From Clostridia bacterium (GTDB taxonomy: Bacteria; Bacillota; Clostridia; Oscillospirales; Acutalibacteraceae): 64,000 bases of DNA. Below the pieces are notes generated by a model, which saw only the letters and a program-made list of their open reading frames with translations, had not been told where the DNA came from and did not search any database. The stretch spans positions 31,553 through 95,552 of the forward strand of contig JAFQRF010000015.1 in NCBI GenBank assembly GCA_017410195.1, in the 5' to 3' direction. This document shows positions 38,565 to 51,438 of this stretch, piece by piece. Position 1 is the first letter of the stretch. Every line of letters begins with the position of its first letter. The translations under genes were made by a program, and so were the position numbers.

Positions 38565-38689
38565 CTTCCATTTTAAATTGATTTCAGTATATCACAAGAA
38601 AAAATAAAAATAAAGTAATTTTATAAAAAACTTGATATTTTCGTCAGCAGATATTAGAATATAAGAAATAAGACTTCGGAGGGGATAAT

Positions 38690-39427
38690 ATGTCAAAAGC
38701 AGTTGAATATTTTGAAAACATACAGAAAATCATGAGCCGAATTATGACGGAGCAAATGGAGAATATAGAAAAAGCCGCAAGAGCGGTTGCAGATACTCTT
38801 GAAAACGGCGGCAGAGTACACGCTTTCGGAACAGGTCATTCGCATATGCTTGCCGAAGAGATTTTTTACCGTGCAGGCGGACTTGTAAATGTCAATCCCA
38901 TTCTCGAATCGGGTCTTATGCTCCACGAAAGCGCCTCAAAAAGCACTGCTCTTGAAAGACTTGAAGGTTACGGCGAAATTATTTTTGACTTTAACAATAT
39001 AAACGAAAAGGATATACTTTTCCTTTTTTCAAATTCAGGCAGAAACGGTGTTGCGATTGACCTTGCCCTCATCGCAAAAGAAAGAGGCGTCAAAACCGTT
39101 GTCATAACAAATATGCTTCACACAATGCAGGGCAAATCAAGGCATTCAAGCGGTAAAAAGCTTTATGAAGCCGGTGATATCGTGATTGATAACTGCGGAT
39201 GCATCGGCGATGCATCGATGACGATTGAAAAAATCGGCAGGAATGTTGCACCCACCTCAACTGCAGCGGGTGCGGCAATTCTCAACGCAATCGAAGCAAG
39301 AGCGGTCGAAATTATGGTTGAGGAAGGTTATATGCCCGAGGTATTCTCAAGCAGCAATGTTGACGGCGGCGACGAGATAAACGAGGCTTACATCAAAAAA
39401 TACAGCGGGGAGATTAAAGCATTATGA
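38690..39427 (+). CDS. SIS-domain protein (UPF0309, Streptomyces NagS-like)
   Basis: FGTGHS, FYRAGGL, ALER, SNSGRN, SRH.SG, IGDA, SNVDGG. Confidence 0.8.
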   Translation: MSKAVEYFENIQKIMSRIMTEQMENIEKAARAVADTLENGGRVHAFGTGHSHMLAEEIFYRAGGLVNVNPILESGLMLHESASKSTALERLEGYGEIIFDFNNINEKDILFLFSNSGRNGVAIDLALIAKERGVKTVVITNMLHTMQGKSRHSSGKKLYEAGDIVIDNCGCIGDASMTIEKIGRNVAPTSTAAGAAILNAIEARAVEIMVEEGYMPEVFSSSNVDGGDEINEAYIKKYSGEIKAL

Positions 39428-41088
39428 TTTATCCTGAATTTCAGAAGTCTGTTATAGCCGAGTGGATTGATTTTTCACCTGCAAAAATTGCCGTTGACGG
39501 ATATGAAAGCAGCTTTGTAAGTGAGAAATTAAGAGAAAATACCGGCAACACATGTAAAGCTTATACACTTTACATAGATGTTGTTAAGGAAAACACAAGA
39601 AGAACGGAATATATTGAAGAAGCATACCGCATAACAGATGAAAAGTACTTCATGTGCGGCGAAAAAAATGGCGATGATTTCAGAATGACGCTCACCGTTT
39701 CGGGAAAGAAGTCACTTTTCAGAGCGGTTAACAGAATTGCTTCGATGTTGGACGACGGAAAATTCCCCGTCGGTACGGTAGAAGATTATCCTTTGTTTGC
39801 CAAAAGGGGCTATATAGAAGGGTTTTACGGCAATCCTTGGAGTCACGATAACCGAAAAATGATGCTTGAACTCATGTCTTTTTACGGCATGAACACATAT
39901 TATTATGCCCCGAAGGATGACCCTTATCACCGCGACAAGTGGGATATTTTATATCCCGAAAAAGAGCTTTCGCAGCTTACGGAAATTTCTGACCTTTGCC
40001 GTGAAAATTTTGTTGATTTTCACTTCTGTATTGCTCCGGGACTCAGTATGAAATATTCCTCAGAAGAAGATTTTTGTAAACTGGCATGTAAAGTTAAACA
40101 ACTTTACAACATCGGAATCAAAAAATTCGGTCTTCTGGTTGATGATATTCCTGAAAACCTCTGTTTTGAGGAGGATAAAATTGCTTTTGACGGTGAAGCG
40201 GTCAATGCGCACATATATCTTATTAACAGATTTTACGGCTTTATTAAAGATTTGAATTCCGAATGCAGTCTTACAGTTTGTCCGCTCGTTTACCACGGAA
40301 GCGGTGAGGAATACTATGTTTCAAAGCTTGGCAACGGAATCCCGAGCGATGTAAGCATCTTCTGGACGGGAAAAAATATCTGCTCTCAGGAGCTGACAGT
40401 CAGAGAGGCTGTTGTTTTTGATAATGCAACAAATCATAAGCCGCTTTACTGGGATAACTTCCCCGTTAACGATTGCGAAATGTATAACGAAATGCATATC
40501 GGCTATCTGAGCGGCAGAGAAAGGTATCTTTTCCGTTATTCGGAAGGTTTAATTTCAAATACAATGGAGTACTGTCTGTCAAGCAGAATACCTTTACTTA
40601 CGGCTTCGGACTATCTTTGGAATCCCATTGCCTACAGTCCGTACGAATCGTGGCATAAGGCATGTGAAATTGTTCTTGGTGAGAACAAAGAAACACTCAT
40701 GCCTTTCCTTGATAACCTTCTTACCTCTTGTCTGAAGGTTGAAAATTCACCGATGCTGAATTCGGCGCTCGGAAATGCTCAACAAAAACTTTTTGCGGGC
40801 GATATGCCCGGTGCATTTGCAGTTATGGCAGAGTATACAGGCAAACTTTCGAAGTGCTGCGAAGCTCTCAGAACTCTTGATAATTCAATGGTTAAGGAGC
40901 TTATGCCTTGGGCTGAAAAGCAATTCCTTGCGCTTGATGTTATTGAATCCTCTCTTTCGCTTCTGGGAGAAAAATCCGATGAAAATAAGCAGAAAGCAAA
41001 CGATATTCTGCAGAAATATCTTTCGCATTCGAAAACTCTGTGTGACTTTTCTCTCAGAGAGTTTGCAGAAAGGATGCAGACATTATGA
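39424..41088 (+). CDS. GH84 beta-N-acetylglucosaminidase (O-GlcNAcase-like), no signal peptide
   Basis: RGYIEGFYGNPWS, YYYAPKDDPYHR, LVDDI catalytic DD pair, FWTG, WDNFPVND; ATGA overlap with the SIS gene. Confidence 0.9.
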   Translation: MIYPEFQKSVIAEWIDFSPAKIAVDGYESSFVSEKLRENTGNTCKAYTLYIDVVKENTRRTEYIEEAYRITDEKYFMCGEKNGDDFRMTLTVSGKKSLFRAVNRIASMLDDGKFPVGTVEDYPLFAKRGYIEGFYGNPWSHDNRKMMLELMSFYGMNTYYYAPKDDPYHRDKWDILYPEKELSQLTEISDLCRENFVDFHFCIAPGLSMKYSSEEDFCKLACKVKQLYNIGIKKFGLLVDDIPENLCFEEDKIAFDGEAVNAHIYLINRFYGFIKDLNSECSLTVCPLVYHGSGEEYYVSKLGNGIPSDVSIFWTGKNICSQELTVREAVVFDNATNHKPLYWDNFPVNDCEMYNEMHIGYLSGRERYLFRYSEGLISNTMEYCLSSRIPLLTASDYLWNPIAYSPYESWHKACEIVLGENKETLMPFLDNLLTSCLKVENSPMLNSALGNAQQKLFAGDMPGAFAVMAEYTGKLSKCCEALRTLDNSMVKELMPWAEKQFLALDVIESSLSLLGEKSDENKQKANDILQKYLSHSKTLCDFSLREFAERMQTL

Positions 41089-41603
41089 TTGGAATAAAAA
41101 ATCCTGCTCTCCGTGAAGCCTATGAGCGTCTTTATCACAAAACTCCGCTCGGGTTTTACAATTGCGGCAGACTTTGTGACGGGCTTTGCTGCCGTGGCGA
41201 CTGTCAAGGTATGTGGCTTTACCCCGGAGAGGAGGAGCTTTTCAGAGATAAAGAAGGATTTGAGGTTTGTGAAACCGAAGGAAACTACGATTATCCCATG
41301 GTCATTTGCTCCGGAGAATGCAACAGAGAGGAAAGACCGCTTGCGTGCCGCATTTTTCCTGCATTTCCGCTTGTTACGGAGGATGACGGCAAGGTCAGTG
41401 TTGAAGTTATTTATGACCCGAGAGCATCAATGTGTCCTCTTGCACGAAATAAAAAACCGCTTGACCGTGCTTTTATTAAAGAAGTACGCAAAGCGGCGTT
41501 ATATCTTGCACGTGACAAGGAAATTTTTGAATACATGAAAGCTGTCAGTGAAGAAATAACCGAAATCATTGAGTTGAAGAATAAATTAGAAGGTATCTTT
41601 TAA
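41085..41603 (+). CDS. Cys-rich hypothetical protein (CxxxCxxxCC, YkgJ/metal-chelating-like)
   Basis: CGRLCDGLCC, CSGECNREERPLACRIFP, CPL; ATGA overlap. Confidence 0.6.
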   Translation: MIGIKNPALREAYERLYHKTPLGFYNCGRLCDGLCCRGDCQGMWLYPGEEELFRDKEGFEVCETEGNYDYPMVICSGECNREERPLACRIFPAFPLVTEDDGKVSVEVIYDPRASMCPLARNKKPLDRAFIKEVRKAALYLARDKEIFEYMKAVSEEITEIIELKNKLEGIF

Positions 41604-42919
41604 TGAGTAAAATTGGGTTTAAAATAATAATTGTAACCGTGATGATTCTGTCGCTATGTTCGTGCAGAATTACCGTTGAGCCTGAGTTGATTCCGAGTGT
41701 AACAACAACCGAAGCAGGCTACGACTATGTGTCTGCAGCGTCAAAGCTTTCAGCGGCGTCGGGATTATCGGTAACCCCTTCCTTCCTTGAAAATATGGGA
41801 GAATCGGTAACTTCTCAGCTTGTTTCCGCAGTCGATTCGGGTACATACACCGAGAAGACCTGGCTATCTGTTACGGGTTATTCGTATTATGTTACAAAGG
41901 ATATTCTTTCCGGAAATTATACTGCCGAAAACATAAAGGACTGCAGCAATAACGGCAGGGATTTATTTAGCGTTGCGTTTGTCGGCGATATACTTTTTGA
42001 TAAGGATTTTCGTCCTATGGTGCATGCAAATGAAATGGGCGGTGCGCTTAACTGCATAGATAAAGCCGTAATCGATTATCTCAATGCCTGCGATATTTTT
42101 CTTATTAATAATGAGTTTACAATCGGCGAAAGAGGTGAGCCGTTACCCGGAAAAACATGGACATTTCAGGTTGAACCGGATAAAATTCAGCTTTTGAAGG
42201 ATTTGGGTGCGGATATTGTTTCACTTGCAAATAATCATATTTATGACTATGGTGAAGTTGGCTTTTTCGATACGATTGACAATCTTAAAAAGGCGGGAAT
42301 GCCTTATGTAGGCGCAGGTTCAAACCTTGAAGAAGCCGCAAAACCCTATTATTTCATTGTAAACGGCGTTAAAGTCGGCATTGTTGCGGCAAGCTGTGCG
42401 GAAAAAACGACCTCATTCAACCCTGTTGCAACCGTCGAAACACACGGAGTTATGGGTACTTACGACAGCACGGAGTTTATTAAAGCAATAAAAAAAGCGG
42501 ATGCCGAGTGCGACATCCTTGTTGCCTATGTGCATTGGGGAACAGAAAACACAACCGTTCTCGACGAACAGCAGAAAACTCTTGCCCGCGAATATATTGA
42601 TGCAGGCGTTGATGCCGTTATCGGCGGTCATACGCATTGCCTTCAGGGCATGGAATTCTATAAAAACGTGCCTATTGTTTACAGCGTAGGTAATTTCTGG
42701 TTTAACAGCAAGACTCTTGACTCCTGCGTTATAACCCTTGAAGTGGACAGAAAAGGGGACATGGGTATCAGAATTATGCCTCTCAAGCAGCAGAATTGCG
42801 AAACACGTCTGCTTGAGGGCGAAGATGCCCGTGCGCTTTTTGACAGAGTTGAAAGCTATGAGCCTCAGGGCGTTTCGATTGCCGATGACGGCTTGATTAC
42901 TTCTGCTCAGACTCAGTAA
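41603..42919 (+). CDS. CapA-family (PGA_cap) metallophosphatase-fold lipoprotein
   Basis: Lipobox LCSC; VGDI, NNE, SLANNHIYDYG, HWG, IGGHTHCLQG, YSVGNF. Confidence 0.85.
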   Translation: MSKIGFKIIIVTVMILSLCSCRITVEPELIPSVTTTEAGYDYVSAASKLSAASGLSVTPSFLENMGESVTSQLVSAVDSGTYTEKTWLSVTGYSYYVTKDILSGNYTAENIKDCSNNGRDLFSVAFVGDILFDKDFRPMVHANEMGGALNCIDKAVIDYLNACDIFLINNEFTIGERGEPLPGKTWTFQVEPDKIQLLKDLGADIVSLANNHIYDYGEVGFFDTIDNLKKAGMPYVGAGSNLEEAAKPYYFIVNGVKVGIVAASCAEKTTSFNPVATVETHGVMGTYDSTEFIKAIKKADAECDILVAYVHWGTENTTVLDEQQKTLAREYIDAGVDAVIGGHTHCLQGMEFYKNVPIVYSVGNFWFNSKTLDSCVITLEVDRKGDMGIRIMPLKQQNCETRLLEGEDARALFDRVESYEPQGVSIADDGLITSAQTQ

Positions 42920-43223
42920 ATCCGAGCCACGCATATTTTTTCATATCGACCCTGCCGTCAGCAAGAAATTCAATGCCTTCTTCGCTCAGGAGAAGGCGTT
43001 GCATATTCTCGCCTCCGAAAGCAAAAGCAGTTGAAACTTCTCCGTTTCGGGTAACAACACGGTGGCACGGAATTTTACCAGGCTCGGGGTTGACATGGAG
43101 GGCGTAGCCGACTACTCTTGACCATCGGGGATTGCCTGCCATCGCAGCAACCGTGCCGTATGACGCAACTTTTCCTTTGGGTATTTTTCTGACAACCGAG
43201 TAAATTTTATCAAAAGTATTCAT
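42897..43223 (-). CDS. O6-alkylguanine DNA-binding/methyltransferase (MGMT/ATL) single-domain protein
   Basis: IPKGKVASYG, RVVGYAL, PCHRVV, QRLLLSEEG. Confidence 0.88.
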   Translation of the reverse strand: MNTFDKIYSVVRKIPKGKVASYGTVAAMAGNPRWSRVVGYALHVNPEPGKIPCHRVVTRNGEVSTAFAFGGENMQRLLLSEEGIEFLADGRVDMKKYAWLGFTESEQK

Positions 43224-43281: not shown

Positions 43282-43950
43282 ATGCCGAAATATACACATA
43301 TCATATGGGACTGGAACGGAACTCTTCTCAACGATATATCCGCATCGCTTGCAAGCGTGAATGATATGCTCGATATGAGAGGGATGCAGCATATTAATAT
43401 TGACTTTTATAAAGAATGTATCGGAGTGCCTATCAGAAAATTCTATGACCGAGTTTTTGATATGAAGAAAGAAGATTATTCAATTATAATAAAACAATAT
43501 AATGAAGGCTATCTCAGGCATCTTGCCGATTGCGGACTGACTGACGGTGCGTGCGAAGCTATAAAGCATTTCAGAAAATGCGGCATGCATCAGGCGGTTG
43601 TTTCGTCGTCAAATAACGACCAGCTTTGTGCAAATATAAAGAAATACGGACTTGACGGCTGCTTTGAAGCCGTGCTCGGGTCGGCTGATTTTTATGCAGG
43701 CTCAAAGATTGACCGTGCGAAAGATTATCTTGCCGAAACAGGAGGAGAGAGCGAAAAAACGCTTGTTATCGGCGACCTTGAGCATGATGCGGATATGGCA
43801 AAGGAGCTTGGTGCAGACTGTGTTTTGCTTACAAGCGGTCATGAGCATATTTCGCGCCTTGAAAGAGCCGGAGTACCCTTGATTAATGATTTGTTTGAGT
43901 TGATTTGTTATACGGATAACGCTTTGCAAAACAAGCCAATTGTTGATTGA
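43282..43950 (+). CDS. HAD-family hydrolase (DWNGT variant)
   Basis: WDWNGTLL, VVSSS, K, VIGDLEHD. Confidence 0.82.
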   Translation: MPKYTHIIWDWNGTLLNDISASLASVNDMLDMRGMQHINIDFYKECIGVPIRKFYDRVFDMKKEDYSIIIKQYNEGYLRHLADCGLTDGACEAIKHFRKCGMHQAVVSSSNNDQLCANIKKYGLDGCFEAVLGSADFYAGSKIDRAKDYLAETGGESEKTLVIGDLEHDADMAKELGADCVLLTSGHEHISRLERAGVPLINDLFELICYTDNALQNKPIVD

Positions 43951-50316: not shown

Positions 50317-51438
50317 TTAAAGCATTCTTTTACCCTTGACGAAAACAGCTTTTATCTCTGAAAAATCCTCCGACAGAATGAGCAAATCTGCGTTCTTTCC
50401 TTCTTCAATGCTGCCCGTTTTTTCATCAACCCCGATTGCTCTTGCAGGGTTGATTGTGAGGGATTTAATTGCCTGTTTAAGCGGAATTCCGAACTTTAAA
50501 AGATTGTGGAATTCTTCAAAAAGATTCGTGCTGCTGCCTGCAAGAGTTCCGTCTGCAAGTCTTGCGGCATCTGTTTTATATATCTTCTGACCGCCAAGCA
50601 TGTATTCACCCTCGGGAAGCCCTACCGACATTGTTCCGTCGCTGATAACAACAGTTCTGTCCTCTCCGAGTGCTTTAAATGTTATTCTGAGTGTTGCAGA
50701 TGAGATGTGAATGCCGTCGCATATGAGTTCAGCAAAAATCTCATCGCTGTCAAGAACCGCACCGACCATTCCGGGTTCTCTTGAACCGAGTCCGCTCATT
50801 GCGTTGTAAAGATGTGTTGCGTGTGTTATGCCCCAGCCGAATGCTTCTTTTGCTTTTGCGTAGTCAGCCGTGGTATGCGCCGCTGAAACCGTGCAAAGCT
50901 TTGATGCTTTTTTTGTGAATTCTTCGGCACCGTTTCTTTCGGGAGCAATGTCAACAAGTTTTACCGGGCAAATGTCATTCAGCTCATTGAATAGTTCAAA
51001 ATCAGGTTCAACTATATGTGCGCCGTCCTGTGCGCCTTTCTTTTCAGGTGCAATAAACGGACCTTCCATATTTATTCCGTGGATATATGCTCCTTCTTCT
51101 TTTCCCATTGTATCCGCAATATAACCGAAGCATTTTCTGAGTGTATCGGCAGGCAGCGTCATTGTTGTAGGACAAAAAGAAGTTATGCCGTTTTTAGCAA
51201 GCCATTTGCTCATGTTTGCAACTGAGTCAGGTTTTCCGTCGGTTGCATCAGCAAGATTACAGCCGTGAATGTGAATGTCGATGAACCCGGGTATAACAAC
51301 GCATCCTTCAAAGTTTTCACCGTCAGCATTTGTAGGGGTGATTTTTTTGATTATTCCTTCGCCGATTTCGAGATCGGTTTTAAGCGGTTCAAAATTTCCG
51401 CCATAGACTGTTGCATTTTTAATTATCATTTTATTCAC
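50317..51438 (-). CDS. nagA: N-acetylglucosamine-6-phosphate deacetylase
   Basis: PGFIDIHIHG, EGPF, AHT, THLYNAM, ICDGIH, ISD, LAGS, NPA. Confidence 0.96.
   Translation of the reverse strand: MNKMIIKNATVYGGNFEPLKTDLEIGEGIIKKITPTNADGENFEGCVVIPGFIDIHIHGCNLADATDGKPDSVANMSKWLAKNGITSFCPTTMTLPADTLRKCFGYIADTMGKEEGAYIHGINMEGPFIAPEKKGAQDGAHIVEPDFELFNELNDICPVKLVDIAPERNGAEEFTKKASKLCTVSAAHTTADYAKAKEAFGWGITHATHLYNAMSGLGSREPGMVGAVLDSDEIFAELICDGIHISSATLRITFKALGEDRTVVISDGTMSVGLPEGEYMLGGQKIYKTDAARLADGTLAGSSTNLFEEFHNLLKFGIPLKQAIKSLTINPARAIGVDEKTGSIEEGKNADLLILSEDFSEIKAVFVKGKRML

Follow-up and report, generated by a model that had tools for sequence, protein, structure and literature searches.

The SIS-GH84 gene pair and its products

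The DNA considered here, referred to as the window, is a stretch of 64,000 nucleotides (nt) from the metagenome-assembled genome (MAG) of a Clostridia bacterium of the family Acutalibacteraceae (assembly GCA_017410195.1, contig JAFQRF010000015.1, positions 31,553 to 95,552 of the forward strand). Its ORF list and sequence place at 38690-42919, on the plus strand, an operon of four genes, each overlapping the next. The first gene (38690..39427) encodes a single-SIS phosphosugar enzyme of 245 amino acids (aa), which profile and structure matches assign to UPF0309/PRK02947, the MurQ-related family of NagS. The second (39424..41088) encodes a protein of 554 aa belonging to glycoside hydrolase family 84 (GH84), a putative cytoplasmic beta-N-acetylglucosaminidase according to its profile match and lack of a signal peptide. 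An earlier prediction made from the letters of the window had joined these two genes through an ATGA overlap, and both open reading frames (ORFs) and the overlap are present in the sequence. The chain of overlaps goes beyond this pair and takes in two further genes, one for a Cys-rich protein, translationally coupled to GH84 through another ATGA junction, and one for a CapA-like protein, which starts within a TAATG junction. A consensus scan found a sigma-70-like candidate promoter (TTGATA-17-TAGAAT, 38632..38660, plus strand; a pattern match only) in the 125-bp gap 5' of the SIS gene, followed by a GGAGG-type ribosome-binding site and the start codon.

The GH84 protein, the only one of its family encoded in this genome (G000), matches PF07555 with 315 bits, and no other domain was detected in it. 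Matches to solved structures divide it into an N-terminal domain, a TIM barrel carrying the Asp-Asp pair D240-D241 and a C-terminal helical region, and in alignment with solved GH84s the WWNYPVND and DD regions correspond. The Asp-Asp pair is invariant in 17 orthologues, as are K164, Y290, W343, N345 and D350, and this intact active site suggests that the protein is a beta-N-acetylglucosaminidase. There is no space for a signal peptide, because the open frame (556 aa) extends only two codons 5' of the ATG and the protein does not begin with a hydrophobic stretch; a signal-peptide-like N terminus was found in none of the 81 related GH84 proteins. The catalytic pair and the lack of both an export signal and carbohydrate-binding modules (CBMs), as originally predicted, are thus borne out.

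The best match among solved structures is TtOGA of Thermobaculum terrenum (5diy, E 8e-67). Like TtOGA and other signal-less bacterial GH84s (OgOGA), the window's protein is short and apparently cytoplasmic, with the Asp-Asp pair and a C-terminal helical region; unlike it, TtOGA has no N-terminal domain and is genomically paired with an O-GlcNAc transferase (OGT). The secreted GH84s, such as NagJ and NagH of Clostridium perfringens and BT_4395, have the same catalytic and N-terminal domains (E 1e-53 to 1e-59), but also carry the signal peptides, CBMs and FIVAR/dockerin modules that the window's protein lacks.

The SIS protein matches NF002805/PRK02947 over its full length (residues 4-244; 311 bits, cut-off 135) and PF13580 with 169 bits, and stays well below the cut-off of the MurQ profile TIGR00274 (17.8 bits against 302). 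Its solved-structure matches include a BH3325-type protein (3cvj, E 2.5e-56) and NagS of Streptomyces, SCO4393 (9eol, E 7.5e-45). NagS is a MurQ-related dehydratase of N-acetylglucosamine 6-phosphate (GlcNAc-6P) that acts across C2-C3 (PMC12680351). The SIS protein contains every motif on which a NagS-like identity had been proposed (GHS, YRAGG, ALER, GD and NVDGG). Since the chain numbering of 9eol is that of the NagS paper, the NagS residues can be mapped directly onto the SIS protein. The essential H53, R64, E94 and D179 correspond to H50, R61, E89 and D174, the important N228 and S91 to N223 and T86, and the phosphate-binding S54, S119 and S121 to S51, S114 and S116. The change of S91 to Thr is the only one within this catalytic and binding set; elsewhere, G227 is replaced by Ser. 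In an alignment of 87 UPF0309 proteins, among them members from quite different gene contexts, no variation is seen at H53, R64, E94 and N228, and almost none at D179. Because the residue set is common to the whole family, it cannot tell NagS from inactive relatives; the alignment to SCO4393 that had been proposed as a check finds the residues kept, but they are not diagnostic of NagS activity.

The solved NagS (9eol, 9f7o, 9f7v; PMC12680351) and the SIS protein are thus members of one single-SIS family, equal in length and identical in the catalytic His, Arg, Glu, Asp and Asn and in three phosphate-binding Ser, and a 6-phosphorylated N-acetylhexosamine is the likely substrate of the latter. 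Orthologues of NagS are at least 58.7% identical, occur only in Streptomycetaceae and always lie beside dmdR1 (PMC12680351). In contrast, the SIS protein comes from an Acutalibacteraceae MAG, outside the taxon of the reported activity, and agrees with NagS at about 80 of 232 positions (~34%, a hand count on the printed alignment). The divergent synteny with dmdR1 is absent, the SIS gene being flanked by a divergent malQ operon upstream and by GH84 downstream. The NagS paper also assayed homologues at 33.2% (Clostridium amylolyticum), 25.7% and 35.7% identity: their GlcNAc-6P dehydratase activity was negligible or absent, and none complemented (PMC12680351). In our view, the trace activity of the Clostridium protein could be expected if GlcNAc-6P were what the enzyme makes and not what it consumes. 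Of the NagS-like identity originally predicted, membership of the family stands; the protein cannot be equated with NagS.

Compared with its closest relatives (L089-L091), the SIS protein is 96-98% identical, the GH84 protein only 73-77%, and the Cys-rich and CapA-like proteins 80-85%. Either the SIS gene is much more tightly constrained than its operon partners or it was recently exchanged.

Conservation of the pair in related genomes

A survey with one genome per species yielded 80 related GH84 loci, 81 with that of the window. All related genomes are MAGs, of Acutalibacteraceae, Oscillospiraceae or Clostridia, and many come from the gut of goat, deer and sheep; beyond family membership and gene linkage, the statements on function made here are inferred. 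A UPF0309 gene lies directly 5' of GH84 in 63 of the 81 loci, the overlap measures 4 nt in all 63, and the pairing is kept down to 42% GH84 identity. The neighbourhood survey proposed along with the original prediction therefore agrees with the coupling of the two genes, and the view that their products are functionally coupled is supported.

The loci fall into several architectures. Type I, that of the window, comprises about 30 loci (GH84 48-77% identical) with SIS, GH84 and Cys-rich genes and an optional CapA gene. Type II, with about 35 loci (GH84 42-57% identical), consists of two ceramidase-like genes, a BadF/NagK-type kinase gene, SIS and GH84, mostly overlapping, and often has a divergent GNAT gene upstream. 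Type III (five loci) contains a kinase gene and GH84, and Type IV (seven loci) a MurK-like kinase gene, MurQ (and DUF4838), a divergent GNAT gene, GH84, two ceramidase-like genes and NamZ. Two genomes, G048 and G473, have GH84 divergent from a GNAT-kinase-SIS set. In the GH84 tree, Type I and Type IV form clades with supports of 98 and 100, respectively, and SIS-linked forms occur on either side of the deepest split. Across Clostridia, a BadF-type kinase gene is adjacent to UPF0309 in 20 of 29 loci and a PfkB-type gene takes this place in others. The long, secreted GH84s of the family genomes never have SIS or kinase neighbours, and none of 30 GH84 loci belonging to other classes of this phylum showed a SIS link within 1.5 kb.

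The association was also examined at the level of whole genomes, in a sample of 251 from the family, where a short GH84 occurs in 17, UPF0309 in 30 and both in 15, unlinked cases included. UPF0309 is thus present in 15 of the 17 genomes with a short GH84 vs 15 of the 234 without one (odds ratio ~110), and in one of the ten genomes whose GH84s are all long and secreted.

The remaining enzymes of an amino-sugar route are scattered over G000. An orthologue of the BadF-type kinase, 46% identical to the SIS-linked kinase of G048, is unlinked, at 1679-2629 of contig C39. The gene for GlcNAc-6P deacetylase, nagA, is in the window, outside the operon and on the minus strand (50317..51438; TIGR00221, 300.6 bits, cut-off 225.65). 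It had been placed 10 kb downstream; it is indeed there, 9.2 kb 3' of the pair, but is not linked to the operon. Contig C14 carries a NagB-like gene of the Glucosamine_iso family, and the possibility that the SIS protein is a missing NagB was rejected because this gene is already there and nothing is missing. The true MurQ of the genome (TIGR00274, 317 bits) is encoded on contig C43 (36635-43819, locus L088), together with two ceramidase-like proteins, a GNAT, a DUF4838 protein and a MurK-like kinase, in the order of Type IV loci but without GH84 between the GNAT and ceramidase-like genes. NamZ was not found in G000. The window's operon has no linkage to cell-wall genes, but the same GH84 clade is linked to genes of the MurK, MurQ, NamZ and GlmA types in seven loci.

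A possible salvage role and its alternatives

We consider it somewhat more likely than not that SIS and GH84 together form the core of a cytoplasmic module for amino-sugar salvage that is specific to this lineage. This view is based on the nature of the partners, which are an exo-GlcNAcase, a kinase, a MurQ-related SIS protein, a GlmA-like GNAT and amidohydrolase-like proteins, and on the presence of MurQ, MurK and NamZ themselves in the clusters of some genomes. A cell-wall-type substrate is the likeliest specific case, though one that we put forward tentatively. GH84 would strip the terminal beta-GlcNAc off imported GlcNAc-capped fragments, most probably cell-wall-type disaccharides or muropeptides, for example GlcNAc linked to N-acetylmuramic acid (MurNAc) or a variant of it. 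The BadF/NagK-type kinase, operon-borne in relatives and unlinked in the window's genome, may then phosphorylate the freed N-acetylhexosamine(s) at O6. The SIS enzyme would perform chemistry of the MurQ/NagS type on a GlcNAc-6P-like sugar phosphate, with ring opening, abstraction of the C2 proton, and 2,3-elimination and/or hydration; removal of a 3-O substituent, or a reaction directed towards GlcNAc-6P, seems likelier than net dehydration of GlcNAc-6P. Finally, NagA and the NagB-like enzyme could send the product into glycolysis. The intracellular GlcNAc release and GlcNAc-6P side route first suggested for this locus is retained in so far as GH84 appears to be cytoplasmic and the partners fit an amino-sugar route, but not as to the NagS reaction.

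The known systems for comparison are the MurQ/MurK/NagZ/NamZ/GlmA recycling clusters of E. coli, B. subtilis, Clostridium acetobutylicum and Tannerella. As in peptidoglycan-sugar recycling, an exo-GlcNAcase would be followed by a BadF-type kinase and a SIS lyase or hydratase giving GlcNAc-6P, and the GH84 clade of the window is found inside MurK-MurQ-GNAT-NamZ clusters of some relatives. Unlike in those systems, the window has GH84 where they have the GH3 enzyme NagZ, and UPF0309 where they have MurQ, and its genome already possesses a canonical MurQ-MurK cluster.

Several observations weigh against the salvage interpretation, or against its cell-wall version. The window's operon has no sugar kinase gene, and no sugar transporter is linked to the SIS-GH84 module. 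Kinship among the genomes, which are not independent, inflates the co-occurrence statistics. Some orthologous pairs of SIS and kinase genes lack GH84 and lie beside DegT aminotransferases or DUF4838; given these pairs, and one GH84-SIS locus that bears a GH92 gene, the substrate could be a glycan not derived from the cell wall. MurQ, present in 20 of the 251 family genomes, co-occurs positively with UPF0309 (seven of the 20; odds ratio 4.9), and in G603 the two genes are 3 kb apart. UPF0309 is therefore not a simple substitute for MurQ, since both can be present and even share one locus, and its substrate is probably not plain MurNAc 6-phosphate but a related, different GlcNAc-6P-like sugar. 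Displacement of MurQ by UPF0309 was considered, as MurQ is missing from all five kinase-SIS-GH84 genomes, and was rejected in view of the rarity of MurQ, the positive co-occurrence and the 3-kb linkage. Two genomes (G576 and G647) have two GH84 paralogues each, one paired with MurQ and the other with UPF0309.

Four other explanations have to be weighed. A genuine NagS, converting GlcNAc-6P to 6P-chromogen I for deacetylation by NagA in a side, toxicity or signalling branch fed by GH84, would agree with the family and fold that the SIS protein has in common with NagS (9eol, E 7.5e-45), with the retention of the catalytic and substrate-binding residues (apart from S91 to Thr), with the NagA encoded in the genome and with GlcNAc-6P as the expected product of GH84 plus kinase. 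We find it improbable nonetheless, given the gap between ~34% identity and the at least 58.7% of the dmdR1-syntenic orthologues confined to Streptomycetaceae, the finding that homologues of 26-36% identity, including the Clostridium one at 33%, are inactive or nearly so and do not complement (PMC12680351), and the invariance of the residue set in UPF0309 members of quite different gene contexts. Foraging on host or plant glycans, in which GH84 would take beta-GlcNAc off imported oligosaccharides of N-glycan, mucin or other origin and the SIS protein would act on a phosphorylated GlcNAc derivative of these glycans, perhaps by eliminating a sugar attached at 3-O, or as an isomerase/deaminase, suits a herbivore-gut bacterium. 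It is in line with the locus of G048, where the GH84, GNAT, kinase and SIS genes have as neighbours genes for a putative glycosidase (DUF4838) and an alpha-mannosidase (GH92), and with the activity on glycan GlcNAc described for characterised bacterial GH84s (PMC10245121). Across the 80 loci, however, neither a sugar transporter gene nor any additional gene for glycan degradation consistently accompanies the pair, and the recurrent partners are the cell-wall-sugar genes MurQ, MurK-like, NamZ and GlmA-like GNAT, so that we regard foraging as unlikely, if less so than a genuine NagS.

Cycling of O-GlcNAc on cytoplasmic proteins, with GH84 as the deglycosylating enzyme, had been raised as an alternative in the original prediction. 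TtOGA, the best solved match, is a cytoplasmic enzyme that cleaves O-GlcNAc peptides, co-exists with an OGT and is proposed to act with it (PMC4683255), and the window's GH84 likewise has no signal peptide. No OGT of family GT41 (PF13844) was found in G000, which is 93.5% complete, and the conserved partners are all sugar-metabolic enzymes, which leaves O-GlcNAc cycling unsupported. Unlike TtOGA, this GH84 is coupled to sugar-phosphate enzymes, and translational coupling to a phosphosugar enzyme would be out of place in signalling; such a role seems very improbable. Mere adjacency, in which the two genes are an inherited synteny of close relatives without a shared function, is in keeping with the origin of all 80 related loci from one family-level group of MAGs and with the flanks (the malQ operon and a giant dockerin gene) that are also kept in the closest ~25 loci. 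Against this, the pair is kept with different flanks (in L115, in L119-L123 and in all Type II loci) and among GH84s only 42-50% identical, every one of the 63 pairs has the same overlap of exactly 4 nt, genomes with the genes unlinked still have both, and the divergent arrangement in G048 and G473 holds the genes together. We give this explanation hardly any weight.

Signal-less bacterial GH84 "O-GlcNAcase homologues" have long been used as structural surrogates for human O-GlcNAcase (OGA). The operon touches both on the physiological role of these proteins and on that of UPF0309 outside Streptomycetaceae, where the 2025 NagS paper left the function open after negative assays (PMC12680351). 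Under the salvage interpretation, the conserved kinase-UPF0309-GH84 module, which literature searches combining GH84 with kinases, SIS proteins or the recycling of peptidoglycan did not find described, narrows the search for the substrate to beta-GlcNAc-capped amino-sugar disaccharides. More speculatively, the UPF0309 proteins outside Streptomyces might be a second, undescribed class of N-acetylhexosamine-6-phosphate lyases/hydratases, with cytoplasmic GH84s as their dedicated partner in disaccharide salvage. Such a UPF0309 enzyme may strip a 3-O substituent other than, or besides, the lactyl group of MurNAc; a modified form of muramic acid is one candidate, and another is GlcNAc with a sugar attached at O3, as in pseudomurein, core-fucosylated plant N-glycans or type-1 chains. 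If this is true, intracellular bacterial "O-GlcNAcase homologues" would acquire a metabolic and not a signalling role. The module is common in ruminant-gut Acutalibacteraceae, and therefore may matter for how nitrogen from microbial cell walls or from glycans is turned over in the herbivore gut.

Other genes of the operon and of related loci

The third gene of the operon (41085..41603, plus strand) encodes a YkgJ-like protein of 172 aa with eight invariant Cys, arranged as C-x3-C-x3-CC, C-x3-C, RPLxCRxFP and DPRxxxCP. Pfam gave no match to this protein even at E 0.5; its language-model neighbours (Atlas) are labelled YkgJ family. An AlphaFold2 model was obtained with pLDDT 84 and pTM 0.84, for which Foldseek against the PDB found no fold relative at E <= 0.001 and a wide VIA-align search gave a best Z of 3.5. 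The last overlapping gene (41603..42919, plus strand) encodes a lipoprotein of 438 aa with the lipobox LSLC, which a family match assigns to CapA/PGA_cap. The Cys-rich gene is kept in the Type I clade only, and the CapA-like gene is optional, being absent from about one third of Type I loci. Both were rejected as core partners, as neither stands beside GH84 outside Type I and CapA is not constant even there.

On the 5' side, the operon faces a divergent operon with malQ at its head. On the 3' side follow, in order, an opposite-strand ORF, a phosphatase gene of the HAD family, a gene for a giant dockerin protein and nagA. The opposite-strand ORF (42897-43223, minus strand), between the CapA-like and HAD genes, encodes 108 aa with the DNA-binding domain of 6-O-methylguanine DNA methyltransferase (MGMT), and is kept at the same spot in 19 related loci. 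The HAD-IA phosphatase gene (43282..43950, plus strand) is a conserved neighbour of Type I loci and has a promoter-like site of its own. Because of this site and the intervening MGMT-like ORF, it was rejected as a member of the operon, and it is doubtful whether it belongs to the module.

In Type II loci, a gene with a YbaK/ProX-like tRNA_edit domain overlaps the 3' end of GH84 (L129:7641-8222), and is followed by genes for a HAD phosphatase, an FMN reductase and a mutase of the PGM/PMM family. Outside the family, the nearest SIS orthologues, with 54-57% identity (L040:5632-9200 in G118, and L055 in G038), belong to genomes without GH84; their neighbours are a BadF kinase, two aminotransferases of the DegT/DnrJ/EryC1 type and a ceramidase-like protein. 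By tblastn, G000 contains about ten paralogues that resemble the N-terminal domain of neutral ceramidase (on C5, C14, C31, C43, C61, C63 and C71). Proteins of this kind are often encoded as tandem pairs beside GH84 modules (e.g. L129:1187-4351), and some of the paralogues, not others, have N termini resembling a membrane anchor. In MurK-MurQ-GNAT-GH84 clusters that otherwise match, a DUF4838 protein (L161:3208-4947) and NamZ (L148:10570-11691) alternate. NamZ is an exo-muramidase and the N-terminal domain of the DUF4838 protein is GH20b/GH67N-like, which hints that the latter could be an analogue of an exo-hexosaminidase or a muramidase.

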